IMG/VR virus record: IMGVR_UViG_3300036823_000383
Location: 1-64,000 of that record
DNA: 64,000 nt
Origin: a virus
Strand: one strand, 5' to 3'
Positions within the stretch are counted from its first letter, which is position 1; the number at the start of each line of letters is the position of its first letter. Positions 1 through 23,830 of the stretch are shown here, piece by piece. A program made the translations under genes and the position numbers. The notes under the pieces were generated by a model. That model made no database searches, was not told the DNA's origin, and saw only the letters and a program-made list of their open reading frames with translations.

Positions 1-1599
1 TCATGACGTCTCCGAGATGAAGAGTGGCGCAGGCGTAATGTTGCGGTTATGTGGCAAGTTGAGTTGTCGCACACGAGGGCATCGATTGATTCGCACGTGC
101 CTCACGGGTGAGACCGATATGTGCGACAGACTAAGGGAATTGACCAGGGGGTATTTGCGGACATCGGTCCTTACAGGTGAAGGCCCGCGGGTCGTGGCAA
201 AAATAACCGCTTTCGAACCCCGCGGAATCGCTCGCTGTGTGCAGTAGTTACACACCCCGGTGTGTCGAAACGTGTGAGGGCGGACGCGGTGCGGGGAACT
301 CCTCGGAGCGCGCGAGCTCCCGAGCGCCGGCGCCGCCGGGTGGCCTCCGGGGACATTCGGCGGAAGGCGCGCGACCGACCCTCGCGAACGAGAGGGCTCG
401 CTTTCGGCGCGCGTTGTCGGTATCTCTCGGCCGCGCTGGCCACGGCCGGTGAGTGCTCGGCCCCTTGGCGGAACGGTATACGCAGGGGATTTAAAATCCC
501 TGGACCGCGAGGTCGTCCCGGTTCGAGTCCGGGAGGGGCTACCGCTAGAATTCCCGCCGGATTCGTCTTCCGGGAGTGGGTCGCAGACGGAGCCGTCGTG
601 CTGCGATTGTGACGAATCTGTACCCATGTCCCGCTCGAGCTTCTTCCCGAATGCTTCCGCGGACTCCCGCCCGTAGACCTTGAAAACCATGGTCGTCGAG
701 CCATGGCCCATGAGCTTCGCGACGTCCTCTCGCGATACTCCGGCCTCGATGTTCCAGGTGGCGAAGGAGCGTCGAAGGTCGTTCGCCGTGACCCGCGGGA
801 TGCCGAGCTTGTCGCAGAGCGCCGGGAGGTCCTTCGACATCCGGGGCCAGGACGCCGGCAACCCGAGCCGCACTGCGGCGGTGAGGAGAAACCGGTGCGC
901 GTCGAGTGTGACCGGGATGATCCGATCGGACTTCTTCGTCTTCGTCCCACGGACGCGAACCGTCCAGTTCGCCAGGTCGACGTCATCAGCGGTGATGCGT
1001 GCGATCTCCGAGTGACGTGCCCCGACCGACAGTGCGATCGCTAGGGCAGCCTTCTTCGAATCGCTGAGCTGCGCGAACACCTTCGTCGCGTCTTGCCGTG
1101 TAAGGGTGCCGCTCCGAGGGGTGTACTCGATGGAGAACCCCACCGGGCGTAGCGACGAGATGTCGCCGGCGAACGCGCCGCCGCGCTTCGCGAGCTTGCA
1201 CATCTGCACGATCGCCGTGAGCTCCTTGCCGATCGTGTTCGACGACGCGCCCTCTTCACGACGCTGCGCGACGAAGCGGTCGACGCTCGTCGGCGTGATC
1301 GCGGCCATCTTCGTGTCCGCTCCGAAGATGCGCACGGCGTGACCGATCTTGACCGCGTACATCTCCGCAGTGCCCTCGGCCTTCGTTGCCGTCTTCACGC
1401 GGTTCAGCTCTTCGGACCACTTTGCGATAGTGGCCGTGTGCGAGGCTTCGTAATGCGGGTCGGCGGCGAGTCGCTCCCGCTCGGCGAGGTACGCTTCCGC
1501 TGCTTTGCGGTTCTTGCACCTCGTCGACTCCCGGTCACCGGTGACTGGGTCGGTACGGAGCCACCAGATCCCGCCTCGCTTGTAGAGCCCTTTCGACAT
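1..1599 (-). CDS. int: Tyrosine recombinase/integrase; frame reads on through the tRNA and host DNA
   Basis: N-terminal GLYKRGGIWW arm-binding motif; catalytic GARHSEI, GTKTKK, NDLRRSF, LMGH, KVY; the last ~200 codons are low-complexity and include the antisense tRNA; start set at ATG 1599. Confidence 0.93.
   Translation of the reverse strand: MSKGLYKRGGIWWLRTDPVTGDRESTRCKNRKAAEAYLAERERLAADPHYEASHTATIAKWSEELNRVKTATKAEGTAEMYAVKIGHAVRIFGADTKMAAITPTSVDRFVAQRREEGASSNTIGKELTAIVQMCKLAKRGGAFAGDISSLRPVGFSIEYTPRSGTLTRQDATKVFAQLSDSKKAALAIALSVGARHSEIARITADDVDLANWTVRVRGTKTKKSDRIIPVTLDAHRFLLTAAVRLGLPASWPRMSKDLPALCDKLGIPRVTANDLRRSFATWNIEAGVSREDVAKLMGHGSTTMVFKVYGRESAEAFGKKLERDMGTDSSQSQHDGSVCDPLPEDESGGNSSGSPSRTRTGTTSRSRDFKSPAYTVPPRGRALTGRGQRGREIPTTRAESEPSRSRGSVARLPPNVPGGHPAAPALGSSRAPRSSPHRVRPHTFRHTGVCNYCTQRAIPRGSKAVIFATTRGPSPVRTDVRKYPLVNSLSLSHISVSPVRHVRINRCPRVRQLNLPHNRNITPAPLFISETS
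459..541 (+). tRNA. tRNA-Leu(UAA), probable integration target (attL)
   Basis: Acceptor stem GGCCCCT/AGGGGCT, D arm TGGCGGAACGGTATACGC, anticodon stem GGGGA/TCCCT with loop TTTAAAA (TAA at 492-494), long variable arm, T loop GGTTCGAGTCC, discriminator A541 followed by CCG (full CCA not encoded). Confidence 0.95.
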
Positions 1600-1757
1600 G
1601 CGTTTGTTTCCTTCCAAGCTGTGAGCTTGTCTTCATCTACCCGTACCGAAGTGCCGACCTTGAAGCCGATCTCGTGCGCGATCTCGTACGCCTTCGGGCG
1701 CGAGCACCCGAGCGCTTCCTGGAGCTGAGCGACGGAGATCGATCGCGCGACTGTCAC
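1404..1757 (-). CDS. Excisionase-like HTH protein overlapping the 5' end of int
   Basis: ISVAQLQEALGCSRPKAYEIA..KVGTSVRVDEDKLTAW resembles HTH_17/Xis; GTG start overlaps the upstream TGA. Confidence 0.75.
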   Translation of the reverse strand: MTVARSISVAQLQEALGCSRPKAYEIAHEIGFKVGTSVRVDEDKLTAWKETNACRKGSTSEAGSGGSVPTQSPVTGSRRGARTAKQRKRTSPSGSDSPPTRITKPRTRPLSQSGPKS

Positions 1758-2170
1758 GACCCACCTCGCAGCTGCGCCGCGACGTCCGCCGGCACGTTGA
1801 AGAAGCCCTGCGCCCCGAGGCAGGGAACGATCTTCGGTGCCGGCTTCACGTCCTCGAGCACCAGCGCCCCCGGGCCCATGAACCACGGCGAACTCGCCTC
1901 GGTGACGAAGTCGACGATCGTCATCGCCCCGACGATGGCGCCGCGCGGGAGCTCCTCGAGCGGCGGCACCTCGAGCCCGCAGACGTCGAAGATGAACGCG
2001 GCCGCGTCACCGTACTCGCGCAGCGTGCAGCCCTTGGACGCGTGCAGGAGTACTCGGCCACGGAATTCGCGCATCCACGACGGGCAGCGCTCCCAGTCGC
2101 GGTTCTCGTGTCTCTTGTTGGCGTAGAGAATCGCCCACGGCCAGGGCTGGCGAACGGAGAGCGCCTTCAC
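1754..2170 (-). CDS. ASCH domain protein
   Basis: MKALSVRQPW...KRHENRDW...RGRVLLHAS...GAIVG...GAQGFF signature. Confidence 0.88.
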   Translation of the reverse strand: MKALSVRQPWPWAILYANKRHENRDWERCPSWMREFRGRVLLHASKGCTLREYGDAAAFIFDVCGLEVPPLEELPRGAIVGAMTIVDFVTEASSPWFMGPGALVLEDVKPAPKIVPCLGAQGFFNVPADVAAQLRGGS

Positions 2171-2517
2171 GCGGCACGTCCCTTCGACGGCGCGTTCGCG
2201 ATCCGCAGCAGCACGTCGGCGTGACACCGGTGTCCGGGCTTGCACCAGCACGCGAGCGTCTTCCCGCGGAGCTCGCGGACCACGTCGTCGACGGTGACCG
2301 CGAGCATGCCGACGAGGAGCGCGTGTTCGAAGTCACGGACGGCCATCTCACGCGCGGCGTCCTCGTCGTGAGGCGCGGGCGAGCCATCCGCTTTCGCGAA
2401 CGTGTAGTAGCCGAGCGTGTAAGGGTTCCCCCACTTCGACGGGCGCGAGACGACGACAGCGTGCTCCGGCTTCCGCCAGCCCTTCGTGCGTCGAAGCTGG
2501 ATCCGCGTCGGCATCAC
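2167..2517 (-). CDS. DUF4326 domain protein
   Basis: RIQLRRTKGWRKP..VSRPSKWGNPY...LRGKTLACWC...CHADVL. Confidence 0.88.
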   Translation of the reverse strand: MMPTRIQLRRTKGWRKPEHAVVVSRPSKWGNPYTLGYYTFAKADGSPAPHDEDAAREMAVRDFEHALLVGMLAVTVDDVVRELRGKTLACWCKPGHRCHADVLLRIANAPSKGRAA

Positions 2518-2747
2518 GCCGCCCCTTTCGGATCGCCGCTACCGATCCGGCCACCGCGCGCGCTCCACCCGGCGAGGTCTGGACCCTGGCCGCGAGCGCG
2601 TCGAGCGGCGGCGCTGGTGGACCGCCGCCGCCAGTTCGCCTGGAGCCACTCCCGCTCGTGCGCCTCGATGCGGGCGAGCATGGCGGCCCCCTCGCGTGCC
2701 GCGAGCACGCCCAGGACGAAGCCCAGCATGATTGCCGACGCCGTCAT
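2514..2747 (-). CDS. Small hypothetical membrane protein
   Basis: Hydrophobic N-terminus; stop overlaps the next start. Confidence 0.55.
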   Translation of the reverse strand: MTASAIMLGFVLGVLAAREGAAMLARIEAHEREWLQANWRRRSTSAAARRARGQGPDLAGWSARGGRIGSGDPKGAA

Positions 2748-2956
2748 GGGCGGCAGCTCCGCTGCTCGAAACGTTCCGGGATCTTCTCTACGTCAGACAA
2801 GCAATCACCTCCTGACGGGACCGGCGTCCCGCCGCGTGGCAGGCGGTTTTCAGTCGGAGAGGCGGTGTGGCCACCGCGCGTTCAGGTGACTCGATGCGTC
2901 GAGTCGATGGCCGAATGGCAGGCGTTCGAAAGCGTGTGCTGTAGTCGTCATGTTGC

Positions 2957-3433
2957 CTACAGCGCCCGCCGATAGCCGATGCGCGGGATGCCCACGATCA
3001 CGTGCTTCGCAGAGAGCTTCTTTAGCTTCGTGCGCACCATCGTCTCCGACCAGCAACGTCGGGTGGCGAGACTCAGCGCGTCGGAGAGCTCCGCAGCGTT
3101 GGTGATGCCGGTGGTCGCTGCGCACCGATCGAACACGGCAAGGAAACGGATCTCCTCCGGGTTCGGCGCGTACGGCTGAACGACCGGAGAGTGTTGCGAG
3201 CAACCTCGTACACGCTGAATATGGGAGTCGCACAATGCGACATGCGCGGTGGTCACAGAACGCGGAAGAGCTTTTGCGCTGGCGTCGGACGAGCCGAACA
3301 GCCTCCGCAACATATGATCCGGATCGGACGATGCCAGGTCTTCTGGATCGAGCACCGCGGCGGCAGCGGGGGAACTCTTCACGACGCACCTCGCGCAACG
3401 ACGCCCGAGGATCCATCGCGGCAGAACCAGCAC
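2957..3433 (-). CDS. Hypothetical protein with C-terminal winged helix
   Basis: AAELSDAL..SETMVRTKLKKL..VIVGIPRIGY resembles a wHTH; start uncertain. Confidence 0.5.
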   Translation of the reverse strand: MLVLPRWILGRRCARCVVKSSPAAAAVLDPEDLASSDPDHMLRRLFGSSDASAKALPRSVTTAHVALCDSHIQRVRGCSQHSPVVQPYAPNPEEIRFLAVFDRCAATTGITNAAELSDALSLATRRCWSETMVRTKLKKLSAKHVIVGIPRIGYRRAL

Positions 3434-3789
3434 GTTCCGTCAGGCTCGATCGTATAGAGAGAGCGGCACGTCGGGCAGATCACCGTCGGCTCGGCGACGG
3501 CGTCCGGAGGCGCCGCGGCGCACCTCTCACGGATCTCGTCGAAGCGCATCAAGTGCGGATCCGTGTCCCGCTCTTCCGGGCGCGCAGCGGTAGCTTGCTC
3601 GATGGCAGCGCCGACGGCGACACTCGCCTCGGGGACGCGCCCATCCGTCACTGGCTTTGCGTCGGGCGCGCCATCACTCCCGAGCGGCGCGCCGCGGGCT
3701 GCGCGGAAGAGCACAGCGTAGATGACCACCACCAAGAGAACCGCGGCGAGCGTGGCTCCTCCCAGAAACGTCAATGCAAAGGCGAGCAT
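3379..3789 (-). CDS. Membrane-anchored protein with C-terminal CxxC-CxxC zinc ribbon
   Basis: N-terminal TM; CPTC...CWFC. Confidence 0.55.
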   Translation of the reverse strand: MLAFALTFLGGATLAAVLLVVVIYAVLFRAARGAPLGSDGAPDAKPVTDGRVPEASVAVGAAIEQATAARPEERDTDPHLMRFDEIRERCAAAPPDAVAEPTVICPTCRSLYTIEPDGTCWFCRDGSSGVVARGAS

Positions 3790-4017
3790 CTAACGCCCCA
3801 ACTTTCGGCGCTCGGGTTGGTCCGACACGGCGAAGATCGCTGTCTTCAAGCGGCGCGCGAAAGGCGTTTTTCTGCTCGAGTATTCGTAGAGTTCGATGTG
3901 CGAGTTCGCCTTGATGGCCTCGAAGCAGCCAACGGTCTCTTCGTCGACGCATCGATCCACCTCTCGGTGGAGCGCACGCTTCAGAAGCGCGAGAGACGGG
4001 CGCAGCACCTTTGCCAT
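3790..4017 (-). CDS. Hypothetical protein
   Basis: ORF packed between cro and the next gene, GGAG-like RBS context. Confidence 0.45.
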   Translation of the reverse strand: MAKVLRPSLALLKRALHREVDRCVDEETVGCFEAIKANSHIELYEYSSRKTPFARRLKTAIFAVSDQPERRKLGR

Positions 4018-4020
4018 TGC

Positions 4021-4329
4021 TCAGCCGCCCTCAGTTCCGGTGGCACGGTGCTGCTCCTGGTCCTCGGCGCCTGGCAGCGTGAACGGCTCTGCCGGCGGCA
4101 ATGCCCACATGGCCACCGGCACTCCGAAGAGCTGCTGGAGCGGGAGCACGACCGCGAGCGGCGGTTTCCGGTCCCCGTACATGACCCGGTGGATTGCACT
4201 TCCGTCCTGGCCGCTGTTCTTCGTCAGGTCCGCGAGCGTCCACGCCCGTGCGCGCAGCTCGAGCCACGCCAGGCGAGCACCTTCCGAAAAGTGCTTGCCC
4301 AGGTTTCGTCGATGCATCGGAGAGCCCAT
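4021..4329 (-). CDS. Cro-like XRE HTH regulator
   Basis: WTLADLTKNSGQDGSAIHRVMYGDRKPPLAVVLPLQQLFGVP is an XRE HTH; divergent from the cI-like gene. Confidence 0.8.
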   Translation of the reverse strand: MGSPMHRRNLGKHFSEGARLAWLELRARAWTLADLTKNSGQDGSAIHRVMYGDRKPPLAVVLPLQQLFGVPVAMWALPPAEPFTLPGAEDQEQHRATGTEGG

Positions 4330-4425
4330 GAACAGGCAACATAGATGCGAAGGCGCAATATTGCAAGTACGCAAATGAGTGCGGCGCGGTTGCCGGCATC
4401 ATTGCCAGAGCGCAATAATGAACGC
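4330..4425. promoter_or_regulatory. Divergent lysis/lysogeny switch promoters with operator palindrome GCAATATTGC (4355-4364)
   Basis: Minus strand TTGCAA-N17-TATGTT (4366-4338); plus strand TTGCCG-N18-AATAAT (4390-4419) 6 nt before ATG 4426. Confidence 0.7.
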
Positions 4426-5064
4426 ATGGCGCGCCGCGGCAGCGATGACCCGCCGGATCTCTCAACTATTCGGGGCCGGTTCGAGTGGGCTCTGAAGCAG
4501 TGCGGTCACACGAAGCTCTCGCTGGCGCATGAAGCGGGGCTCGACCAGAGCCGGTTCTCAAGAGACATGAAGAGGCCGTCGGGCGAGGTGGTCCACGCCG
4601 TCACCACCGTCACAGGACTGGACTCCCGGTGGTGGCTCAAGGGCACCGGCACGCCGTGGCAGCCCGGACGGGAGCCGCGCCCCGAAGAGGTACGGAACCG
4701 CGACAAGCGGACGCGCGAGGGTCGGGAGGGGCCGGCGCAGGACGCTGAAGCCGCCCTCGAGGAATATCCGTTCGACGAAGGCGCTGACTACCGACGGGCG
4801 CGCGCGCTCGCCGCGTCCGACATGGTCCGTCTGCACGGCTGGAAAGCGTCACGCGTGATGGCGGATATTGGGAAGTTCATCGAGCGCTTCCACGAGCCGC
4901 ACGGCACGACGGATCGCCAGATCGCAGATGGGATCGTATCGACGATGGTGCGCGCTCGTGCCGAGGAAGAAGGCACCGCGAAGGTGAAGCCGGCGCCTTC
5001 ACGCGATCCGGCGCTGGCCCCTAAGCGACTCGCCGCGCGACCACGCGACGGATCGCGTCGCTAA
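4426..5064 (+). CDS. CI-like repressor (N-terminal XRE HTH, no S24 domain recognised)
   Basis: IRGRFEWALKQCGHTKLSLAHEAGLDQSRFSR..PSGEVVHAV..GLDSRWWLKGTG. Confidence 0.78.
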   Translation: MARRGSDDPPDLSTIRGRFEWALKQCGHTKLSLAHEAGLDQSRFSRDMKRPSGEVVHAVTTVTGLDSRWWLKGTGTPWQPGREPRPEEVRNRDKRTREGREGPAQDAEAALEEYPFDEGADYRRARALAASDMVRLHGWKASRVMADIGKFIERFHEPHGTTDRQIADGIVSTMVRARAEEEGTAKVKPAPSRDPALAPKRLAARPRDGSRR

Positions 5065-5623
5065 GCCAGCTTTTCCGAATACCGGGCGACATCTGTGGCG
5101 CTCGGAGCTCCTCGACGCTCGGCCAGGGCGCGGGCTCCCCACGCGTCCGAAGCAGGCGATCCGTCACCAACAAGATGGGCTGCCCTGTGACCTCGCCGAA
5201 CCGAAGCGCTGCGCAGCTCTGTGATGTGCCGAAGTCGAACGCGAGCTGGCGCCATCTCGCGCCACGCTCACGGCACGCGCTGACCGCCGCTGGCCGAGGT
5301 ACGCCGAGGCTCGCCGCAAGTCGGTCGGCTACGATCTCGGCGTCGGCCCCGCGATAGCCCTCCTCGATCAGCACCGCTTCCGCGCACTCGTGGAGCACAG
5401 CCCATCGGAGGCGGCGTGGCGGGAGGCCTTCGCGCACGTAGATCCGGCGCTGCCCGTTCACCCGCGCGAGGACGGCATCGCCAGGTAGTCCCAGGCCCGG
5501 CATCTGCCGAACGGCGACGAGCAGCTTCCTCGCGAGGCACATCGCGTCCACCGGTGCGTCCGAACGAAGCCTCAGCGTTCGCACCACCCGCTCCGCCAAC
5601 CCCTCGATGTCGATGCCCTGCAT
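5021..5623 (-). CDS. ImmA/IrrE-family metallopeptidase-like protein
   Basis: PVDA..LA, RIYVR..RRLRWAVLHECAE, E..ADRLAA.L..P, LA..FGTS pattern; convergent with and overlapping the repressor end. Confidence 0.8.
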   Translation of the reverse strand: MQGIDIEGLAERVVRTLRLRSDAPVDAMCLARKLLVAVRQMPGLGLPGDAVLARVNGQRRIYVREGLPPRRLRWAVLHECAEAVLIEEGYRGADAEIVADRLAASLGVPRPAAVSACRERGARWRQLAFDFGTSQSCAALRFGEVTGQPILLVTDRLLRTRGEPAPWPSVEELRAPQMSPGIRKSWLSDAIRRVVARRVA

Positions 5624-5744
5624 TTGCGCTCCCCATTCGACCAGCCGTCCCGTCGGTTGCTTCGAATCTTCACCGCCAGTCCCAACGTCGGGAAGCTGGT
5701 TACGTCCCCCAGGTCGGACAGGGTAAGACCTGCCTCGCTCAGTT

Positions 5745-5790
5745 CGCAATATTGCAGATTGACAATGTTGCGAATGAGCACGATAACGAG
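5745..5790 (+). promoter_or_regulatory. Early rightward promoter with operator copies
   Basis: GCAATATTGC at 5746-5755, TTGACA at 5759-5764 overlapping the variant ACAATGTTGC, GATAAC 17 nt later, GTG start 6 nt after that. Confidence 0.7.
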
Positions 5791-5793
5791 ATC

Positions 5794-6126
5794 GTGACCA
5801 ACGCAGAGGCGACTTTCCGCGAGTGCCAAACCCCGAAGACCTGCGCCAAATGCGGCGCCGTCCACGACGCGACCCGCTGGGCTCTGCTCTCATTCGTCGG
5901 CCTCCAGAGCGTCGACGAGGAGACCCTCGAGCTCCGGAACTGCCGCTGCGGCTCCACGCTCAGCGTCGCGGTCCAGCCTGGCACGGACACGCTCGAAGGC
6001 GTCGCGCCGGTACGCGCTGGTAGCGCCCCGACGCCGACGCGCGCCCCCGTCCCGGGACGGTACTCGTTCGTTCACGAAGCGTACCTTCGTCGGCTTGCCG
6101 AGTCGACGACGCGGGGTGTCGCGTGA
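5794..6126 (+). CDS. Small Cys-rich (zinc-binding) protein, first early gene
   Basis: KTCAKCG...W..L...LELRNCRCGSTL. Confidence 0.65.
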   Translation: MTNAEATFRECQTPKTCAKCGAVHDATRWALLSFVGLQSVDEETLELRNCRCGSTLSVAVQPGTDTLEGVAPVRAGSAPTPTRAPVPGRYSFVHEAYLRRLAESTTRGVA

Positions 6127-6422
6127 GCGGCCTCGGTTGCGTCGGCAACGGGCTCTACGTTCGCACCGGCGAACGGCGGACGCGCCTGCGACTGGTGCCC
6201 GTTGCGCAGCCTCGGGCAGCCGCGGAGCCGAAGCGTCCCCCGTGGACGCGGTTGGACGACGGTAGCTACGTCCTCGACTGCGGGGCTCGGCTGCATCGAG
6301 TCGAGAAGATCTGGTTCATCACCTTCCATGGGCGCTCTGTCCGCCTGGGTCGGCGCGCGACGTTCGTCACTGCGGCGCGCGCACTCGCCGCCTTCGCATG
6401 CGTGGGAGCGGTGTCCCGATGA
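6123..6422 (+). CDS. Hypothetical protein
   Basis: GTGA and ATGA coupled at both ends. Confidence 0.55.
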   Translation: MSGLGCVGNGLYVRTGERRTRLRLVPVAQPRAAAEPKRPPWTRLDDGSYVLDCGARLHRVEKIWFITFHGRSVRLGRRATFVTAARALAAFACVGAVSR

Positions 6423-6700
6423 GAAGCCCGCACCTCTGCATCATGCTCGCTGGCGCTGGCTTCCACGGCGCTGCCCAGATCCTCGAGCGAGCCGAGGACG
6501 CGCGGGCAGAGCGCGAGGCGATCGCGATCGCGCTGGCGACGCTCGAAGGCGCGCAGATCACGCTCCGGAAGCACCAGAAGGCGTTGCTGCACACTTCCGC
6601 TGCCTTCGAGCGTGGGCAGCTGAAGGGTCTCGAAGAGGACCTGGTGAAGCGCCTCGGCGAGCTCGTTACCCGCGAGGCGCGCCATGCCGCAGCTCACTGA
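6419..6700 (+). CDS. Hypothetical coiled-coil protein
   Basis: ATGA-coupled ORF in the early operon. Confidence 0.55.
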   Translation: MRSPHLCIMLAGAGFHGAAQILERAEDARAEREAIAIALATLEGAQITLRKHQKALLHTSAAFERGQLKGLEEDLVKRLGELVTREARHAAAH

Positions 6701-7073
6701 GCAGATCGCGCGAGACGCGGCTCGTCTTCGGCGCGCGCTCGGGGGCTTAACGCTCTGCATCGACTGCGGCGCCGAGAGGGCAATCGGCGCCAAGGAATGC
6801 ATGGCGTGCCGCCGGTGCACCCAGTGCGGTCTGACGGGCTGCTACCGCGAGGTGTGCGGGGAGGACGCGGGCATGGAGGCCGAGCGCTTCGACGAGCAGT
6901 TCGGACGGATCACCGATGCCTCCGCGGTGGTGCTCAGCGCGCTCTCTGTGGGGCCGATCTCTATCGAGCTCCTCAAGGAACGCCCGAAGTCCGCGCCGCC
7001 GGCGTCGTCGTTTCGTCCGGAGCACCAGGCGCGGATCGAACAGGCGCGCGCGGCGCGGGAGTGGCGGCCGTGA
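6684..7073 (+). CDS. Cys-rich hypothetical protein
   Basis: CIDC..CMACRRCTQC..C..C. Confidence 0.6.
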   Translation: MPQLTEQIARDAARLRRALGGLTLCIDCGAERAIGAKECMACRRCTQCGLTGCYREVCGEDAGMEAERFDEQFGRITDASAVVLSALSVGPISIELLKERPKSAPPASSFRPEHQARIEQARAAREWRP

Positions 7074-7411
7074 TCCCGACATCGCTCGTCGAGCTGCACC
7101 GGCTGCAGAAGGCAGCCGTGATCGCGCTGAAACCGCACTGCCTCGAGAGCCGCGTGAAGGACGCTTCGAATCGGTATGACCTCTACCTGGCTGCATGCGA
7201 GCAACGTCGCTCGCTCGTCAGCACGCGCTTCATCTCCACCCAGGTGGGGAGCCGCGACGCTGCTCGGCTGATCCGGGCGCACACCCAGGCCGCCTTCGAA
7301 GCCGTGACCGCTCTGCTCGCCGAGTGCGAGCGGGAGCTGTGCCTTTCTCCGAACCCGCAACCGACTGGAGATGCCGATGGAAACGCAATCGACCGCCCTC
7401 ACCACGACTGA
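7070..7411 (+). CDS. Hypothetical protein
   Basis: GTGA-coupled ORF. Confidence 0.5.
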   Translation: MIPTSLVELHRLQKAAVIALKPHCLESRVKDASNRYDLYLAACEQRRSLVSTRFISTQVGSRDAARLIRAHTQAAFEAVTALLAECERELCLSPNPQPTGDADGNAIDRPHHD

Positions 7412-8369
7412 ATCCGCGGCTCTCGCGCGCCCCGACGAGCTCACCGTCCAGGAGATCATCGCGCGCGTGGACAAGGTCAAAGAGGTCCAGAAGGCGGTGA
7501 TGCGCGATGGCGTGCACTTCGGTGTGGTGCCTGGCATCAGCAAGCCGTCCCTACTCAAGCCGGGGGCGGAAATCCTCGGAATGGCGTTCCGCCTGGCGGC
7601 GAAGTTCGTCATCACCGAGACCTTCGACGGCCCGCACCTCACCGTAAAAGCGGAATGCAATCTGATCCACGCGCCGACGGGAGCGTTCCTCGGTCAGGGC
7701 TTCGGGTCGTGCTCGACGCGCGAGAGCAAGTACGCCTGGCGCAAGGGAGAGCGCGTGTGTCCCGACTGCGGCAAGCCGGCCATCATGAAGAGCAAGTACG
7801 GCGATAACGGGGCGCAGCCGGGGTGGTTCTGCTTTGCGAAGAAGGACGGCTGCAACGCGAAGTTCGCCGCCAACGACGATCGGATCACCAGCCAAATCGC
7901 CGGACGGATCCCGAACGAGGACGTCGCCGACACCTACAACACCGTCCTGAAGATGGCGATCAAGCGGTCGCACGTCGCCGCGATCCTCTTCGTCACCTGC
8001 GCGTCCGAGATCTTCACCCAGGACGTCGAGGACATGCCCCGGGAGCAGGCCGACGATGCTGGCGACCGTCCGCAGGAGGGCGCGCGTCCCCAGGATGCAC
8101 GGCAGCAGTCCGCTCCGCGGGGACAGCAGCAGAAGACCGGTCAGCGCCCGAACAACGATGCCTCGGCGCGCGTCTCGAGGCTCATCGCGGCGTACGGCGA
8201 CGCGATCTCGACGGAGCAGCTCCAGGAGCTCAACAACGAGCGCCAAGAGCTGTGGGCCAGCCTTGGCGCGAATGACAAGCGGACGCTGAAGAGCGCTGCC
8301 GACGGCGCCGAGCAGCGCATCCGCAACTGGGACGGCCAGGGGGCGACGGGCACGGACGGGAAGCTCTGA
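7371..8369 (+). CDS. Putative single-strand annealing protein (Rad52/Sak/ERF-like phage family)
   Basis: HFGVVPG..KPSLLKPGAE..G.GSCST.E.KY..NTVLKMAIKR..SEIFTQDVED; next to SbcCD; inserted CPDC zinc motif. Confidence 0.65.
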   Translation: MPMETQSTALTTTESAALARPDELTVQEIIARVDKVKEVQKAVMRDGVHFGVVPGISKPSLLKPGAEILGMAFRLAAKFVITETFDGPHLTVKAECNLIHAPTGAFLGQGFGSCSTRESKYAWRKGERVCPDCGKPAIMKSKYGDNGAQPGWFCFAKKDGCNAKFAANDDRITSQIAGRIPNEDVADTYNTVLKMAIKRSHVAAILFVTCASEIFTQDVEDMPREQADDAGDRPQEGARPQDARQQSAPRGQQQKTGQRPNNDASARVSRLIAAYGDAISTEQLQELNNERQELWASLGANDKRTLKSAADGAEQRIRNWDGQGATGTDGKL

Positions 8370-8680
8370 TGCCGTCGTTCTTTGTGAAGCAACCGGACGG
8401 GCGGCTCGCTCGCTTCTCGTCCGTCGTCGACGACTTCGTGGCGTTCGACATGACGGCAGAGGAGGCCGAGCAGCTCATCCTGGACGAACTCGTCGAGGTT
8501 GCCCGGGCAACCGCCAAAGCAGCCGTTAAGCGCGGTATCGACGATGAGCTCCCGCGGCACCACGGGGTCTACGGCGATGGTCAGGCGCGCTGGCGCGACG
8601 CGCTCGAGACGGTGGAGTCGATCCACGGCAAGAACGCCAGGGCGCAGCGCGAGCGGCGACGCCTCGGGAGCGATTCGTGA
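8369..8680 (+). CDS. Hypothetical phage protein
   Basis: FFVKQPDGRLARFSSVVDDF..MT.EEA; coupled ORF. Confidence 0.65.
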   Translation: MPSFFVKQPDGRLARFSSVVDDFVAFDMTAEEAEQLILDELVEVARATAKAAVKRGIDDELPRHHGVYGDGQARWRDALETVESIHGKNARAQRERRRLGSDS

Positions 8681-9852
8681 AGCTCGCGTTCGTCACCGAC
8701 AACCACTTCGACGAGGCGTCCCGCTTCGAGGAGACGATCCGCGTCCACGACTTCATCGCCGAGGACGCTGCGCGCCGGGGCTGCGAGGGAACGCTCCTCG
8801 GCGGGGATCTCTACGAGGGGAAGAGCAGCATCGCGGAGCGGAACGCGGCGGTCGCGTGGGTGCTGAAGATGGCGACGATCGGCCCCGTCGTCGGCGTCAA
8901 GGGCAACCACGAGATCGACGGGGACCTCGACGTCTTCAACCGGCTCCGTGGGCGCCATCCGATCCGGATCCACTCGGATCCCGACGTAGACCGCATCGGC
9001 GACGTGCTGATCGCGTGCGTGCCGTGGCCGCGGAAGGCCTCTCTGATCGCGAAGTACGGCCGGCTCGGGCTCGAGGAGAGCAACGCCAAGGCGACCGACT
9101 ACCTTCGTCAGGACTTCCGCGGGCTCGCCGAGGCTATGGACGCGCACGGGGACGCGCCGCGCATCGCGCTCGCGCACGTCATGATCGACCGAGCGACGAC
9201 GGACCACGACCAGCCGATCGTCGGCGCCGACATGGCCGTCTCGCTCGAGGAGCTCGGGCTGCTCCGAGCCCACTTCTACGCCTGCGGGCACGTGCACGCG
9301 CAGCAGGCGTTCCGCATCGGCGATGCCGATTGCATCTACGGGGGCGCGCCGAAGCACTGCAACTGGGGCGAGCCAGGCCCGAAGGGGTACGTGGTGCTCA
9401 ACGTCGAAGGCGGCCGAGTCGTCGGGTGGGAGCGGGTCGCGACCCCTGCGACGCCCATGGCGCTCGTCAACGCCACGTGGTCGGGCCCGTTGGGCCAGGA
9501 CGACGGCGGTCAGCCCCGGGGGTTCCGCGACATGAAGCGCGAGGCCTCCGTCTCCGGCGCCGAGGTCCGCGTGCGTTACGCCGTCGAAGTGAGCGACCGT
9601 GCGGTCGCCAGTCGCGCCGCCGAGGAGTATCGCGCCGAGCTCCTCGCGAACGGCGCAGTGAGCGTCATCCTCGAGGAAGAGGTCATCGCGACGACGCGCG
9701 CCCGCGTCCCCGAGATCACGAGCGCCCTGACGATCGCCGAGAAGCTCTCGACGCTTTGGGCTGCGCGCGGCGAGGAGATTCCGGCGCCGGCGCGCGAGCG
9801 GCTGTTCACGAAGGTGACTGCTCTGGAGGAGGAAGCCCGTGCTGCAGCTTGA
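8677..9852 (+). CDS. sbcD: SbcD/Mre11-like metallophosphoesterase nuclease
   Basis: DxH, GDLY, GNHE, AH, GHVH motifs. Confidence 0.92.
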   Translation: MKLAFVTDNHFDEASRFEETIRVHDFIAEDAARRGCEGTLLGGDLYEGKSSIAERNAAVAWVLKMATIGPVVGVKGNHEIDGDLDVFNRLRGRHPIRIHSDPDVDRIGDVLIACVPWPRKASLIAKYGRLGLEESNAKATDYLRQDFRGLAEAMDAHGDAPRIALAHVMIDRATTDHDQPIVGADMAVSLEELGLLRAHFYACGHVHAQQAFRIGDADCIYGGAPKHCNWGEPGPKGYVVLNVEGGRVVGWERVATPATPMALVNATWSGPLGQDDGGQPRGFRDMKREASVSGAEVRVRYAVEVSDRAVASRAAEEYRAELLANGAVSVILEEEVIATTRARVPEITSALTIAEKLSTLWAARGEEIPAPARERLFTKVTALEEEARAAA

Positions 9853-12286
9853 GCGCGTCGAGTATCACAACGTCGGTCCGTTCTCGGACTTCGTCGTCGA
9901 TCTGTCGAAGTACGCCGACAAGCTCCTGATCGCCGTCTGCGGCGAAAACGGGGTGGGGAAGTCCTTCTTCCTCGAGTCCGCGTTCGCCGGTGCGATGTAT
10001 CGGACGATGCCCACTCAGGGCACGCTCGTGAAGCGAGCCACGGCGAAGGACTCGTGGATGCAATCCACGCTCGTGAACGGTGCTACGCGGACGTTTCGGC
10101 ATGTCCTCGACGGCGTGTCCGGCAAGTCCGAGGCCGTCGTCCTCGACGAGCATGGCATCTCGGTCCTGCCGGACTCGAAGGTGCGGTCGTTCGACGCTTG
10201 GGCGGCGAAGCACTGCCCGCCGCCGGAGGTCACGTTCGCCTCGCTCTTCGCCGCGCAGAACTCATCGGGGTTCCTCGGCGCGAAGCCCGCTGAGCGCAAG
10301 GCCATCCTGCTCCGGGTGCTCGGCATCGAGCGGCTCGAGCTCCTCGCCGCTCGCGCCCGCGAGCACGTCCGCGACACGCGGGTTGCGATCAACACGCTCA
10401 CCAGCCGGATCGACGACGAGAAGCGGCGCGCCACCGGCGATCCGGCCGAGATCGAGAAGGAATTAGACGCAGCTCGAGCCGGCGTCGCGACCGCTGAGCA
10501 GTCCCTTGTCGCCGCCCGTGCTGCTGTCGATGCCGCGCGAGCGGGCGCCGTGCTCATCGAGCAGCGGACCTGGGAGTTCAACGCCGTCCGAGACCGCCGT
10601 GAGGAACTCTTTACACGCCTTGCGGCGAAGCGCTCGGAGATCGCTGACATCGAGGAACGGATCGCCAACAACCGGAACATCCTCATCGACGCGGTGAAGA
10701 TCCGCGCGGCAGAGACTCGGCTCGTCGAACTCCGCGCCGAAGCTGCATCGCTCGAGACGTCGGTTCGGACGCACGAAGTCGCTCGCCTTACCGCGGTGCG
10801 GGAGCGCGACGGGCACGAGCGTTCGCGAGTCGCCGCAGAGGGCAGGGCAGCCGACGCGCGGGCTCGGCGCGCTCGGGCCGAGAAGCGGCTCGCGGATCGG
10901 TCGGTCATCGAGGAGGCCGCCCGCGTCCTCCCAGCCCGGCGTGAGGCGCTCGCGTCCGCGACGGAGGCCGTCGAAGCAGCTCGTCAGGCGCTCGAGGAGC
11001 TCCGCGGGCAGCGCCTCGACGGCGCCGCGGAGCGGATCGGTTCGCTCCGCCAGGGTCTGACGAACATCGCCGGGGATTGGGAACCGGACACGGGACTCGA
11101 TTACGCCAAGCAGGAAGCACTCAATCGCCTCTCACTCGATGACGATGCGGTCGAGGAGGCGAGAGAATTCCCAGCCCGGCTCCGAGCTGCCGAGCAGGCC
11201 GTCCGCGAGGCGGATGACGCCAGGGCGCACGAGGAAATCGCCGTCCGTCGGTTCGAGCCACTCGCGGCCCGCGTCAGCGATCTGGCTGCTGCCGAGCAGG
11301 ATACGAAGGACGCTGACGAGGCGGCGAACAAGGCCATCGAGGAGGCCGACGCCGCGAGAGTCGCCCGAGGACTGGCGGATGCGACGGCCGTGGACCGTGA
11401 GGAGCAGCGTGCCGCCGCGCAGGCCCGGGTGGTGGTGCTCGACCAGGAGATCGCCGTCGCCGTTCCGCTGGCCGCGCGAGTGACGAAGCTCGCCGAAGCA
11501 ACGGCGCGCATCGCGACCCACGAGCAACGTCTCGCGTCCGTCCGAGCGGAGCTCGCTCAGATCGATACCGACCTGACGGCCACACCCGAGCCGTCGGCGC
11601 CTCCCCCGATTCCCGACGTCGCTGCGTGCGCGTCAGCCGCGGACGCCGCGGAGAGCGAGGCGAGGCGCGCCGCGACGTCAGTCGCAGCCCTGGAGCAGCG
11701 TCTCGCGGACGCCCGCGCCTCCGAGGAGCGCCTCGCCGTTCTCACGAACGAACGAGGGGAGCACGACGACGAGCTCGCGGAGTGGACCCGGCTCGCCGCG
11801 GACATCGGGCGGGACGGCATCCAGGCGCTCGAGATCGACGCCGCCGGGCCCGAGCTCACGGAGATGGTGAACGACCTGCTCCATTCGTGCTTCGGCACTC
11901 GCTGGACGATATCCATCGAGACAACGCGGCTCTCGGCCGACGGCAAGCGTCAGCTCGAAGGCTGCGAGGTGATGGTGATCGACACGGTGTCCGGGCGCAC
12001 CGCCGAGGCGGCCGACTTCAGCGGCGGTGAGAAAGCCATTCTTGAGACGGCGACGAGTCTCGGCCTGATGATGCTCGCCTGCAAGCGGGCGGGGTCGAAG
12101 GACTGCACTCTCGTCCGTGACGAGTCCGGCGCGGCCGTCTCGAAGGGCAACGTGCGGGCCTACGTGGCGATGCTCCGGCGGGCCGCGGAGCGTGTCGGCG
12201 CGCGTCACGTCCTGCTCGTCTCGCACGTGCCCGAGGTGGTCGAGCTGTGCGACGACCGCATCAACATCCCGAGAGCGGCGGCGTGA
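9839..12286 (+). CDS. sbcC: SbcC/Rad50-like SMC ATPase
   Basis: Walker A GENGVGKS, Q-loop, long coiled coil, FSGGEK signature, Walker B LVRDE, VSH. Confidence 0.92.
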   Translation: MLQLERVEYHNVGPFSDFVVDLSKYADKLLIAVCGENGVGKSFFLESAFAGAMYRTMPTQGTLVKRATAKDSWMQSTLVNGATRTFRHVLDGVSGKSEAVVLDEHGISVLPDSKVRSFDAWAAKHCPPPEVTFASLFAAQNSSGFLGAKPAERKAILLRVLGIERLELLAARAREHVRDTRVAINTLTSRIDDEKRRATGDPAEIEKELDAARAGVATAEQSLVAARAAVDAARAGAVLIEQRTWEFNAVRDRREELFTRLAAKRSEIADIEERIANNRNILIDAVKIRAAETRLVELRAEAASLETSVRTHEVARLTAVRERDGHERSRVAAEGRAADARARRARAEKRLADRSVIEEAARVLPARREALASATEAVEAARQALEELRGQRLDGAAERIGSLRQGLTNIAGDWEPDTGLDYAKQEALNRLSLDDDAVEEAREFPARLRAAEQAVREADDARAHEEIAVRRFEPLAARVSDLAAAEQDTKDADEAANKAIEEADAARVARGLADATAVDREEQRAAAQARVVVLDQEIAVAVPLAARVTKLAEATARIATHEQRLASVRAELAQIDTDLTATPEPSAPPPIPDVAACASAADAAESEARRAATSVAALEQRLADARASEERLAVLTNERGEHDDELAEWTRLAADIGRDGIQALEIDAAGPELTEMVNDLLHSCFGTRWTISIETTRLSADGKRQLEGCEVMVIDTVSGRTAEAADFSGGEKAILETATSLGLMMLACKRAGSKDCTLVRDESGAAVSKGNVRAYVAMLRRAAERVGARHVLLVSHVPEVVELCDDRINIPRAAA

Positions 12287-12471
12287 ACGCGCAGTGGTTC
12301 GAAGTGACGACGGTTCTCGGCAAGACGTTCCGCGTGCTCGTCGTCAACGAGCGCGTTGCCGCGACGACGTGTCCGGAGGAGGCCGACGTCGGGTCGCTCT
12401 GGGCGGACGAGTGCCGCGACTTCGACCTGGCGGGCTGGACCGTGCGCCAGCTCCCGAGGGATCGGTCGTGA
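12283..12471 (+). CDS. Small hypothetical protein
   Basis: GTGA-coupled. Confidence 0.5.
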   Translation: MNAQWFEVTTVLGKTFRVLVVNERVAATTCPEEADVGSLWADECRDFDLAGWTVRQLPRDRS

Positions 12472-12659
12472 CCTGGTTCCGCTGCACCTGGGTCGACCGG
12501 TGCGAGACGTACGTCCGCATGGTCGCGGTTGCCGAAGGCCGCATCGCGGGCAGCGACATCGCTTACCCGTTCGGATTCGGCAGGGAGTGGAAGGAGGCCA
12601 GCGCCTTCGCTCTCCGGATGGGGTGGACGATCGAGCGTCTCGAGCCGGCCGAGGAATGA
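12468..12659 (+). CDS. Small hypothetical protein
   Basis: GTGA-coupled; same G-W-T-V/I C-terminal pattern as the preceding ORF. Confidence 0.5.
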   Translation: MTWFRCTWVDRCETYVRMVAVAEGRIAGSDIAYPFGFGREWKEASAFALRMGWTIERLEPAEE

Positions 12660-13033
12660 ACAAGAAGTGGCTCCTATCCAAGGACATCTACGGTCGCGAG
12701 CACGACCCGATCACGCGCGAGCGCGATCCCGAATCCGATCCGAAGCACCTCGCGTGGATCCGTTCGCTCCCGTGCGCTGTGCTCGCACATCCGTTGCCAG
12801 GCTCGACGCGGTGCCGCTTCCCGGTCGAGGCGCATCATCCGACGGGGGCAGGCCTGGCACTACGCGATGGGGACGCGGGCGCGATCCCGCTGTGCGGAAA
12901 ACATCATCGCGAGGAGCTGCACCTCTTCGCCGGATCGTTCCTCGGCTGGTCGAAAGAACGCATCCACGAGTGGGAGCGCGCGATGTCTGACTTGTACGAG
13001 CGCCTTGGGGTGCTGCGAAGGGAACTGCGATGA
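12656..13033 (+). CDS. DUF968/HNH-like zinc nuclease-fold protein
   Basis: KHLAWIRSLPC..EAHH..G.G..D..AIPLCGKHH..LH. Confidence 0.78.
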   Translation: MNKKWLLSKDIYGREHDPITRERDPESDPKHLAWIRSLPCAVLAHPLPGSTRCRFPVEAHHPTGAGLALRDGDAGAIPLCGKHHREELHLFAGSFLGWSKERIHEWERAMSDLYERLGVLRRELR

Positions 13034-13935
13034 GCGAACGAGCCGGCTACCTCCACGTCCACGACATGAGCGTGCACGTGTGGGAGGACACCGTCGAAGA
13101 GAAGGGGATCCGTGAAGTGTACGGTTCGATCCTCGCTGGCCTCCGAGGAAGGGGCTTCGCGACGAGACGCGACCCCGACGTGGAAAGGAGATGGCCCACG
13201 CTCGCCCCGTGGAATCACGTGGGCGAGAAGCGTGGCATCGAGTTCCACGCGAACACCTCGGGGCGGCACATCGAGCTGAGCTTCTTTCAAAACGTCAACC
13301 GCGGGCCGAACCCGAACTCCAACGGGGGCCGCTACGACTTCGACAAGTTCGCTCGACTGCCTCGGTACATGCGTCTGCACGCCGTCGCCGAAGTCGTGGC
13401 GGTGCTTGAGAAGCTGCGCCTGAACTATGGCTACGCGCTGAGCGCCGCACTCCGGAGCTCTGAGCCACTCGGGCGCGCCGTACTCCGCGTGCAGGAAGGT
13501 CGCCTCGACGAGGGCGATGCACTTGGCGCGTTCAACCGTTCGTGGTCGGCAGATCGTTTCGTCCGTGGCCCGGACGGCTGGCCCGCGAAGAGCGAGTTCA
13601 AGTCGTGGCCCTACTACGACCGAGACGGCATCGAGCTGCAGAGCGGTGACGTCCGGTACGCTCGCGTCGATGGGCGGCTCGTCCGTGGGACGGCGCACCC
13701 CGGCGTAAACGGGCAGTGGTTCCTCGTCTCACACGGCGAAAGCCTCGGCTCGCACCTGCACGCGAAGGCCCTCTTTCGGTGCGAGCACCCGGAGCTGGAG
13801 CCACGACGCCTCGTCCTGGGGCAGCCCGAGCGGCTTCATCGTGAGCTCGAAAAGCTGACCAAGGCGCGGTCGTATCGGCGAGTTGCCGCCGTGGGTGCGA
13901 CGCTCGCCCGCCTCGAATCGGGAGCGGCAGCGTGA
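13030..13935 (+). CDS. Hypothetical phage protein
   Basis: 301-aa ORF coupled at both ends; NGGRYDFDK motif. Confidence 0.7.
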   Translation: MSERAGYLHVHDMSVHVWEDTVEEKGIREVYGSILAGLRGRGFATRRDPDVERRWPTLAPWNHVGEKRGIEFHANTSGRHIELSFFQNVNRGPNPNSNGGRYDFDKFARLPRYMRLHAVAEVVAVLEKLRLNYGYALSAALRSSEPLGRAVLRVQEGRLDEGDALGAFNRSWSADRFVRGPDGWPAKSEFKSWPYYDRDGIELQSGDVRYARVDGRLVRGTAHPGVNGQWFLVSHGESLGSHLHAKALFRCEHPELEPRRLVLGQPERLHRELEKLTKARSYRRVAAVGATLARLESGAAA

Positions 13936-15521
13936 GACCTCCTGTCCTACGCGCCACGTTCGAGCCCACCGAGATGCTCGTCGACAACTTCGCCGGGGGC
14001 GGCGGGGCGTCCGAGGGTATCAAACGCGCCGTCCGCGCCCCGGACGTCGCGATCAATCACAACCCGGTCGCGCTCGCGATGCACCGCGCGAACCATCCAG
14101 AGACGCGGCACTACTGCGAAGACATCTGGGCAGCGGAGCCGCGCGAGGTGTGCTCCGGGCGTCGCGTCGGTTGGATCTGGTTCTCGCCCGACTGCACGTT
14201 CTTCTCAAAGGCTCGCGGAGCGAAGCCGATGCGGGACGCCGAGAGACGCGTGCGCGGGCTGGCATGGGTCGTTCCTCGCTGGATCCGAGCGGTGTGGCCT
14301 CGCGGGTTCCTGCTCGAAAACGTCGAAGAGTTCGAGGATTGGGGACCGCTCGGAGAAGATGGGCTTCCTGACAAGGGGCGCGCCGGGCGCACGTTCCGCG
14401 CGTGGGTCGCGCAGATCCGCGGGCTTGGGTACGCCGTCGAGTGGCGTCAACTCGTTTGCGCGGACTACGGCTCGCCGACTACTCGAAAGCGGCTGTACCT
14501 CATCGGTCGCCGCGACGGTCAGCCGATCGTTTGGCCGGAGCCGACGCACGGAAAGCATCGTCCGCAGCCGTGGCGCGCGACGTCCGAGATCATCGATTGG
14601 AGCCTCCCCGTCCGGTCGGTCTTCGGTCGCAAGAAACCGCTGGCGGAAGCGACGATGCGTCGAATCGCGAAGGGCCTGCAGCGCTACGTCGTCAATGCGC
14701 CGAACCCGTTCGTGATTCCCGTGACGCACCAGGGTGACTCCCGCGTGTATTCGATCGACGGTCCGTTGCCCACGGTGACGGGCGCGCACCGCGGCGAGCT
14801 TGCTCTGGTCAATCCGTTCGTCGTTCGGACCGGGCACTACTCCACCAAAACGGGCGCCGGCATCGAAGAAGGGCGCGGATGCGGCACCTTCCGGGGGCAG
14901 CCTCTCGACACGCCCCTCGGGACGATCTGCCGAACGAATGACAAGAACCTCGTCTGTCCGATTATCACGAAGCACTACGGCGACCCGGACCGAGTCGCTG
15001 GAGGCGGGACCGTAGTCGGGCACTCCGTCGATCGCCCGCTCGGGACGGTGACGTCACGGGACCACCACTCGCTGACAACGGCCTGGCTCACGAAGTACTA
15101 CGGCACGGCAACCGGCTCGTCGATGGACGCGCCGCTGCCCACGATCACTGCGAACGATCGCGGGGGCGGCCACCTCGCCGAGGTCCGGGCCTTCCTGATC
15201 AAGTACTACGGCGCGCAGTCCGGACAGCAGCAAAGCCTGTTCGACCCACTGCACACGGTGACGAGCAAGGCGCGCTTCGCCCTCGTGACGGTGTACGGGG
15301 AACTCTACGAGATCGTCGACATTGGGATGCGAATGCTGGCGCCTCGCGAGCTGTTCAGCGCGCAAGGCTTCGGCCCCGAGTACATCATCGATCTGGAGCA
15401 CAACGGGAAGCGGCTCACGAAAAGTGACCAGACAGAGCTCTGCGGCAACAGCCAGAGCCCCGACGTCGCCGAGGCACTCCTCGCGGCAAACACGGGACGG
15501 ACCAGGTCGGTGGCAGCGTGA
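13932..15521 (+). CDS. DNA (cytosine-5) methyltransferase
   Basis: DNFAGGGG, SPDC, LENVEEF, RKRLY, C-terminal GNS; five internal PLxT(V/I) repeats. Confidence 0.93.
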   Translation: MRPPVLRATFEPTEMLVDNFAGGGGASEGIKRAVRAPDVAINHNPVALAMHRANHPETRHYCEDIWAAEPREVCSGRRVGWIWFSPDCTFFSKARGAKPMRDAERRVRGLAWVVPRWIRAVWPRGFLLENVEEFEDWGPLGEDGLPDKGRAGRTFRAWVAQIRGLGYAVEWRQLVCADYGSPTTRKRLYLIGRRDGQPIVWPEPTHGKHRPQPWRATSEIIDWSLPVRSVFGRKKPLAEATMRRIAKGLQRYVVNAPNPFVIPVTHQGDSRVYSIDGPLPTVTGAHRGELALVNPFVVRTGHYSTKTGAGIEEGRGCGTFRGQPLDTPLGTICRTNDKNLVCPIITKHYGDPDRVAGGGTVVGHSVDRPLGTVTSRDHHSLTTAWLTKYYGTATGSSMDAPLPTITANDRGGGHLAEVRAFLIKYYGAQSGQQQSLFDPLHTVTSKARFALVTVYGELYEIVDIGMRMLAPRELFSAQGFGPEYIIDLEHNGKRLTKSDQTELCGNSQSPDVAEALLAANTGRTRSVAA

Positions 15522-16327: not shown

Positions 16328-16347
16328 AGGTCGAGTGGATGAACGGG

Positions 16348-17142: not shown

Positions 17143-17311
17143 TATCGCGGAGCGTACCGCGGACAGTTCCCCTCGCGAACACTTCCGGAGCAACCGGCAT
17201 GAAAAGCCTTCGAATCTCGTTGGAGATGTTCGCCGAAGAGCTCGAAGACGACCGCGACGAGGCAGAGGCGTGGCGCGAGGAGACGACGGAGCTGCTCAAG
17301 GAGACCGAGCC

Positions 17312-17788: not shown

Positions 17789-18036
17789 GCACGTTCTGGT
17801 GCTGGGAGGCGGAGAACGAAGAGTCTGACGATGCGGAGCAGGTCGACGCTTACGATGCCGAGTGCGCCGCTGAGAAGTACATCGAGAGCCGGTGGTCCGA
17901 CTTCGATCACCCTGAGACGTCGTCGGTGGACGTGCGCGATGCGCAGGGGACCGTGACGCGCTGGACGGTCACGACCGAGCCGACGGTCGTCTTTCATGCG
18001 TCCCGCAAGAAGCTCGACGTCAAGGAGTTGCCGTGA
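17785..18036 (+). CDS. Hypothetical protein
   Basis: ATGA-coupled, GGAGG RBS. Confidence 0.6.
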   Translation: MSTFWCWEAENEESDDAEQVDAYDAECAAEKYIESRWSDFDHPETSSVDVRDAQGTVTRWTVTTEPTVVFHASRKKLDVKELP

Positions 18037-23828: not shown

Positions 23829-23830
23829 GG

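Follow-up and report, generated by a model that had tools for sequence, protein, structure and literature searches.

The DNA analysed here comprises 64,000 nucleotides (positions 1 to 64,000 of IMG/VR virus record IMGVR_UViG_3300036823_000383; hereafter the window) and holds the left part of a prophage together with its integrase gene, int. The window corresponds to C8:38838-102837 of an 8.8-Mb, 154-contig genome assembled from a soil metagenome, and the element is a myovirus-like prophage of 87.8 kb whose host, a soil myxobacterium, carries it in a tRNA-Leu(TAA) gene. The explanation that best accounts for the data overall, and that we hold to be probable, is that the phage attachment site (attP) lies inside the 3′ part of int, that integration exchanges the C-terminus of the integrase (Int), and that the tail encoded in the excised state is conserved.

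Integrase reading frame and attachment site

In the integrated state, open reading frame (ORF) calling places int on the minus strand, from an ATG at 1599 to a TGA at 3-1 (532 aa); a TTG at 1617 is an alternative start, and homologues begin at the ATG. The gene, its target and the sites around them are laid out as follows, attL and attR denoting the left and right prophage ends and L002 a locus holding sequence beside attR.

1..1599, minus strand: int ORF in its integrated ('IntX'-like) form, 532 aa, with residues 1-371 phage-encoded and residues 372-532 from host DNA
622..1599, minus strand: predicted folded part of Int (~residues 1-326), with N-terminal three-stranded, core-binding and catalytic domains, from Pfam and the AlphaFold model of homologue P0006
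545..621, minus strand: phage-encoded linker from the catalytic domain to the core, residues 327-352, GC by codon position 0.64/0.49/0.69
607..623, minus strand: candidate arm-type Int site, copy 1, the 17-mer GTACAGATYCGTCACAA, encoding TDSSQ
487..544, no strand: attL core, a 58-bp exact direct repeat reaching from the anticodon stem to one base beyond the tRNA 3′ end
459..543, plus strand: host tRNA-Leu(TAA) gene, from ARAGORN and Rfam (RF00005, 52.6 bits)
1..486, minus strand: host-derived Int tail (residues 372-532) and stop, with flat GC by codon position (0.63/0.62/0.67)
L002 1390-1406, minus strand: candidate arm-type Int site, copy 2, 95-111 bp beyond the core on its other side, encoding TDPSQ

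Residues 179-313 match Pfam Phage_integrase (PF00589) at 61.9 bits, against a curated cutoff of 27.1, and R195, K220, R276, H299 and Y309, assigned to canonical catalytic positions by eye, are invariant in a 17-sequence Int alignment. The catalytic tyrosine, put at about codon 310 in a preliminary description of this DNA, is residue 309 (codon 675-673). Beyond it the frame passes antisense through tRNA-Leu(TAA), which covers residues 353-381 and includes the peptide SPSRTRTGTTSRSRDFKS, and then stays open for 151 further codons up to the TGA; the same description had traced this path and estimated some 150 codons. There is no stop in the int frame between 545 and 640, and the loss of one through assembly error, named earlier as a way in which the reading could fail, is unlikely because Logan contigs of the probable source run (X1) show 0 differences over 515-1700 and 1-516 and homologues have the same open frame. 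The window DNA is ~65-70% G+C, and the other five frames of 1-458 contain 1-8 stops; by our own arithmetic, 65% GC gives ~2.5% stops among random codons, and 151 open codons would occur by chance with p ~2%.

The usual position of the second catalytic His of tyrosine recombinases, 3 residues before R276, is occupied by Asn273 (NDLRR; codons 272-274 at window 778-786). Asn stands there in all 17 closest Int sequences and Asn or Lys in remoter members; SSV-type integrases, named after the archaeal fusellovirus SSV, have Lys at the matching position (PMC5861418).

The 3′ part of the tRNA gene at 459-543 is restored by phage DNA. A duplicated tRNA 3′ fragment had been expected beyond 64000, and a second copy of the core is indeed present at C8:127111-127168 (window-equivalent 88274-88331), 87,787 bp rightwards and outside the window, where all 58 bp are 100% identical. 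This copy, attR, has a thiolase gene to its right and phage-type genes to its left, and both junctions lie on one 155-kb contig. A search of the prophage's own genome with 440-700 found the core at 2 places only, which identifies one element and no tandem pair. The expectation that the free phage lacks an intact tRNA likewise holds, as ARAGORN detects no tRNA at attR and only tRNA positions 29-85 are duplicated there. Two genomes of the same genus (G101 and G102) have an intact tRNA-Leu(TAA) with a homologue of window 1-458 before it and the thiolase flank directly after it; because the intact tRNA sits between both host flanks, these genomes, judged by sequence, carry the unoccupied attachment site, attB.

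Contigs from sequencing runs agree with this arrangement. In the X1 contigs the core forms a separate 58-bp unitig with a depth of 19.3, compared with 9.9 and 9.4 for the flanks, as two copies predict, although such a unitig cannot tell attP or attB from attL plus attR. A 151-nt contig from another soil run (X2) joins sequence like the right prophage end (28 of 30 shown letters) to the core and to 18 nt of the int side, and is an attP junction of a close relative; in run X4, a contig that leads from the left host flank through the core into the flank on the thiolase side is an attB junction. Each is a single low-depth contig and provides weak but direct support.

With attP rebuilt in silico from the right end, the core and the left end, int encodes a protein of 431 aa, of which residues 1-371 are those of the prophage form and the following 60 are encoded beside attR. 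The core occupies codons 352-371 of this 431-codon gene, 3′ of the catalytic tyrosine, which places the attachment site inside int as first proposed. The TGA of the 431-aa form overlaps the ATG of a 54-codon ORF (ATGA, L002 1318-1321). Integration swaps the last 60 phage-encoded residues for 161 host-encoded ones, derived from the tRNA 5′ part and host intergenic DNA, and the prophage keeps residues 1-371, including the whole Pfam domain, contiguous. The excised and integrated genes thus encode different Int C-termini, a prediction of the preliminary description that the rebuilt gene bears out, and the C-terminus of the excised form is conserved across the family.

On this basis, int of the excised circle would read a lambda-Int-like folded body ending ~17 residues past Tyr309, followed by a disordered linker with one candidate arm-type site, the 58-bp core (the antisense tRNA 3′ part) and, last, the second candidate arm-type site and a conserved C-terminal amphipathic helix that ends ...RRAA and leads through ATGA into the next gene. 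Integration would cut int at the core, so that the prophage copy would read the remainder of the tRNA and host DNA, adding 161 arbitrary residues up to an ATGA, and excision would restore the original 431-aa int. We infer that both Int isoforms are made, and loss of the helix may change the activity, stability or directionality of Int, as reported for the Myxococcus phage Mx8.

Conservation of the phage-encoded tail

A protein search with Int gave 89 hits. In all 19 closest homologues (51-83% identity) the frame is kept open for 106-166 residues after the tyrosine, and peptides resembling antisense tRNA, of at least three kinds, lie between the catalytic domain and the end of homologues, which indicates that these target different tRNAs. 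The same 19 proteins each have two in-frame TxxS[QH]-type motifs, one on each side of the antisense-tRNA-like stretch, and the two copies co-vary within each protein. Motif spacing takes 3 values among the 19 and ~9 values (54-78 codons) across 27 two-copy proteins, as measured with a loose regular expression for which one value of 31 is a spurious first match. Since the spacing varies yet stays in frame, selection appears to act on the reading frame.

Many of these homologues close with a C-terminal helix, often one ending ...RRAA. Over its ~20 final residues an amphipathic pattern is conserved (FRAxxxxWFRRAA or WxLAxAAxxxGVL...), and proteins no more than 30-40% identical differ there by conservative substitutions. 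The last 18 positions of a 39-member profile are reached in 33 of 76 N-complete hits of the protein search. An exhaustive profile search (E up to 1e-30) gave 1,296 representatives at the 50% identity level; among the best 150 of these, 140 are N-complete, 29 of which reach the last 18 profile positions and 98 of which are at least 400 aa long. In the AlphaFold model of homologue P0006, the predicted local distance difference test (pLDDT) score is >88 for residues 1-320 and <50 for residues 332-406, and a helix at 406-431 scores 70-81. The best Protein Data Bank match of this model is full-length lambda integrase (1z1b; E 1.5e-9, 352 columns), which fits an enzyme that uses arm-type sites. Allowing up to 3 mismatches, the 17-mer has no match in the window or L002 beyond its two copies, and their position makes them candidate arm-type sites.

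Tails end in AA in 15 of 48 long-tailed homologues and in A in 22 of 48, and the host transfer-messenger RNA (tmRNA) tag is ANDNAIALAA. Part of the frequency of terminal Ala could come from the ATGA overlap, under which the last codon has to be NNA; by analogy, a role of the ...RRAA end as a degron is plausible but unproven.

To place this gene in a wider family, we collected DNA of relatives at 26-57% identity from 37 genome loci, 31 viral contigs, 80 metagenome loci and 10 same-family genome loci, using the 17-sequence Int alignment for the locus search. Labels of 32 of the 37 genome loci read Myxococcota, Myxococcales, Polyangia, Kofleriaceae, Archangium or Deltaproteobacteria. The metagenome relatives are mostly 30-37% identical, two close ones (L083 and L095) being cut in the N-terminal part, and no phage record exceeds 30% identity to Int. 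The tyrosine could be aligned in 143 loci, which fell into 120 clusters; 119 were sorted by the tRNA near int, leaving out the two forms of this window.

Antisense tRNA fragment only (attP-like), 51 loci: int reads through in 31, stops before the fragment in 18 and runs off the locus in 2
Complete antisense tRNA (integrated), 36 loci: int reads through in 7, stops inside the tRNA in 21 and stops before it in 8
Sense tRNA fragment, 8 loci
Sense complete tRNA, 1 locus
No tRNA detected near int, 23 loci

In 67 deduplicated loci with an antisense tRNA starting ≤330 nt past the Tyr codon, the int frame has a median open run of 75 codons counted from Tyr+15, the other two frames 21 and 15, and at 52 of the 67 loci it outruns both others. 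At the remaining 46 loci, with medians of 21/34/38, it does so in 10. Direct repeats of 14-mers flank the core at 28 loci (27 relatives and the present one), and the ORF of several members that target tRNA-Phe ends between the core and the second repeat. Judged from these loci, int ORFs of this integrase lineage commonly enter or cross the core, with the tail on the far side varying in length and content; by the same kind of comparison, the helix-bearing tail is a feature of the subfamily that holds this Int.

At two integrated loci (L042 and L044, from Kofleriaceae and Deltaproteobacteria metagenome-assembled genomes), the int ORF runs antisense through two complete tRNAs, Lys(CTT) and Arg(TCG).

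A different account also places attP in the int ORF and regards the extension as a tolerated by-product: functional Int would end after the catalytic domain, the isoforms would be alike in function, and the open frame and 'conserved' tail would arise from GC-rich DNA plus DNA-level constraints, namely arm-type sites and the ribosome-binding site and start of the next gene. We consider this improbable, if far from negligible, and several observations weigh in its favour and against a selected tail. GC by codon position in the phage tail is 0.70/0.62/0.69, with no codon-usage signal, as against 0.60/0.51/0.85 in the Int body, and the linker is predicted to be disordered. The TxxSQ motifs are two copies of the 17-mer direct repeat, which offers a DNA-level explanation for part of the conservation, and the ...RRAA-stop end is encoded where the next gene has its Shine-Dalgarno sequence, GGAGG, and its ATG (GGAGG...ATGA). 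Flanking repeats in the wider family are spaced with no three-base preference (remainders 0/1/2 = 10/8/10, 28 loci), and the 18 of 51 other fragment-only loci whose ORF stops before the tRNA fragment imply that catalysis can do without a tail that crosses the core. The homologues are moreover mutually related, and counts among them are not independent events; nor are the genes downstream of attP conserved in related loci, where tblastn with the 54-aa, 317-aa, 99-aa and 220-aa proteins beside attR gave no match. Opposed to the by-product account are the second motif, in frame in every one of the 19 closest homologues with three spacings (about nine across 27 proteins), the residue-level conservation of the terminal helix between proteins 30-40% identical, its prediction by AlphaFold at pLDDT 70-81, and an open run in the int frame ~3.5 to 5 times as long as in either control frame. 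We favour a conserved tail that is exchanged on integration.

Far less probable is an artefact of assembly or binning by which tRNA, int and host flank were wrongly joined. The assembly does consist of 154 contigs from a soil metagenome, and the 58-bp repeat exceeds the assembler word size, so that paths through the repeat are ambiguous; however, both junctions stand on one 155-kb contig with an exact repeat, the host flanks are contiguous in G101 and G102, core depth is ~2x flank depth, and 36 other deduplicated loci have int beside a complete antisense tRNA. We attach equally little weight to the idea that the 161-residue host-encoded tail, which ends exactly at a host gene's ATGA, has a function of its own and is under selection. 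The chance probability of its 151 open codons (p ~2%) and the overlap of its stop with a host start codon speak for this idea, whereas the ORF stops inside the tRNA in 21 of the 36 other integrated relatives. The tail also shows no coding signal (GC by codon position 0.63/0.62/0.67, compared with 0.60/0.51/0.85 in the Int body), its alignment with G101 and G102 has gaps that are not multiples of three, and the same frame at the sites of G102 and G101 would give 19 and 126 codons; for these reasons the long host-encoded tail is, on sequence grounds, an accident of this host.

Neighbouring sequences and the rest of the prophage

The stop of integrated int (TGA 3-1) shares bases with the start codon (ATG 4-2) of a same-strand host ORF of 217 codons (window 4 to -649), for which there is no Pfam match; the overlap is probably a coincidence. 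Host intergenic blocks upstream of the tRNA (~60-330) are well conserved in the two same-genus genomes, with non-triplet gaps and no Rfam family match, and may serve the neighbouring host gene as promoter or leader. Over 1-1700 the tRNA is the sole Rfam match, and the RNA fold of 545-660 is unremarkable (z -1.13). No terminator-like site was found between int and the tRNA; 1-2600 holds one, at 2098-2110, compared with 1.6 expected. Transcription of int may, as the preliminary description proposed, produce antisense RNA to the tRNA; none of the sequencing runs listed as containing 1-1700 is recorded as RNA. The interval from the second 17-mer to the core, beside attR and outside the window, holds a short tandem repeat with the unit CGGTTGTA (L002 1424-1446), which could be a further protein-binding site of attP. 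TTA codons, which the target tRNA reads, are very rare: they make up 9 of 23,035 codons of predicted prophage genes, and none occurs in int.

Directly upstream of int is a small ORF with a helix-turn-helix (HTH) match, a candidate excisionase or regulator on the strength of its sequence; tblastn found one homologue among related loci, upstream of int in L054. On the attR side, the 54-codon ORF is followed on the same strand by a 317-aa HTH protein, a sigma-like protein and replication genes. A crude gene caller based on GC at third codon positions (GC3) predicted 91 proteins between the att sites, and a PHROGs scan of these identified the virion and replication genes listed here, with further matches in the prophage to a DnaC-like loader, SbcCD-like proteins and several methyltransferases.

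545..64000, no strand: left 63.5 kb of the 87.8-kb prophage, which runs on to window-equivalent 88273
1602..1760, minus strand: small HTH ORF directly upstream of int, Pfam HTH_17, E 7.8e-5, 23.3 bits, under the 27-bit cutoff
49061-51127, minus strand: tape measure, E 4.1e-8
52385-53911, minus strand: tail sheath, E 5e-55
57392-58657, minus strand: major head protein, E 2.6e-24
61352 to beyond 64000, minus strand: portal, E 2.6e-39
L163:4271-6085, outside the window: large terminase, E 8.2e-46
Baseplate wedge and two hub proteins: E 9.9e-22, 9.2e-15 and 6.8e-22
Head protease: E 1.3e-23
Helicase: E 1.7e-86

Genes for SbcD- and SbcC-like proteins, a large DNA methyltransferase and a Mom-like modification protein stand in a row at 8677-16324. 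Five copies of a ~150-bp unit (60-72% identical) lie at 26850-27514 within a 481-codon minus-strand prophage ORF, which suggests a repeat-domain protein. The prophage also has exact direct repeats of 74 bp, 99 bp apart (45736-45908), and of 46 bp, 207 bp apart (57136-57388).

Relation to known systems and significance

Mx8 had been cited in the preliminary description as a precedent, with an attP inside int and a C-terminus whose exchange on integration changes Int activity. This agrees with a review, which states that the Mx8 attP lies within int, that integration gives the gene a different 3′ end by which integrase function is changed but not lost, and that integration of Mx9 follows a similar principle. 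The Islander paper describes the integrases of Mx8 and SSV as extending across attP. In the Mx8 Int record, the tyrosine is at residue ~354, an antisense T-arm-like peptide at ~415 and the end at 534 aa. The present phage resembles Mx8 in having a myxobacterial-phage tyrosine integrase whose core, the antisense 3′ part of a tRNA, lies downstream of the tyrosine within the ORF and whose gene gains a new 3′ end on integration. Both also have a small HTH gene at the start of int, which in Mx8 is the MerR-like uoi, overlapping the int start, and here is the ORF at 1602..1760.

The two phages differ in most other respects. Their integrases share no BLASTP similarity (E 1.9) and align weakly with hhalign, over the recombinase body only (probability 47.8%, E 1.9e-4), and Mx8 is absent from the 25 phage records that tblastn matched with Int. 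Mx8 has 49.5 kb, compared with an 88-kb contractile-tailed prophage here, and its target is tRNA-Asp rather than tRNA-Leu(TAA). Unlike Mx8 Int, this Int has a 60-residue tail with a family-conserved terminal helix. As for Mx9, Julien reportedly placed its attP inside int in 2003. A full-text literature search, covering texts that did not include the primary Mx8 and Mx9 papers, found no paper giving an attP within int as a family-wide feature. Judged by sequence, the case described here adds a well-resolved integrated example to the Mx8 kind of arrangement, from a lineage without recognisable relationship to Mx8 Int.

Outside the myxophages, the nearest functional analogue, as far as analogy goes, is the integration-dependent immunity of mycobacteriophage BPs. 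The source on this system (PMC4557955) states that attP of BPs lies in the repressor gene, that the viral form of the repressor has an ssrA-like degradation tag, and that BPs Int also has a C-terminal proteolysis signal. In both phages attP is within a coding sequence and integration removes a C-terminal segment, and the excised Int described here ends ...RRAA beside a host tmRNA tag ending ...ALAA; the gene interrupted in BPs encodes the repressor, whereas here it encodes the integrase. The SSV type shares an attachment site inside int and a gene altered by integration, and in SSV int is interrupted by integration, according to PMC5861418. Unlike the SSV type, the present phage keeps the catalytic body intact and exchanges the tail alone. 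Lambda Int is the best structural match over its full length, including the N-terminal domain, and direct repeats flank the core here much as the P and P′ arm sites do in lambda. Lambda attP lies outside int, whereas the ORF here contains the core together with the two candidate arm sites.

A more far-reaching proposal, which we put forward tentatively and think more likely wrong than right, takes these features together. Integration would act as a reversible covalent switch on Int across a large family of myxobacterial phage integrases; the helix with its Ala-Ala end, present in the excised form only, would set the stability or directionality of Int, as a degron or as an inter-subunit latch; and integration would uncouple the next operon (HTH and sigma-like regulators and replication genes) from int expression through the ATGA across attP. 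If true, int would be the basis of an integration-dependent genetic switch comparable to that of BPs.

The Mx8 arrangement has so far been treated as a curiosity of one or two phages. The same design is found here in an integrase lineage that BLAST cannot link to Mx8 and that is aimed at several tRNAs, with a conserved terminal helix that Int can have in the excised phage only. For annotation, this is a warning that GC-rich integrase ORFs beside tRNAs can carry long host-derived tails and that the real Int C-terminus may sit tens of kilobases away, at the other end of the prophage. The family could also yield myxobacterial integration vectors beyond those of Mx8 and Mx9, and the exchanged tail gives a concrete, experimentally accessible way into the question of how some temperate phages favour integration over excision.

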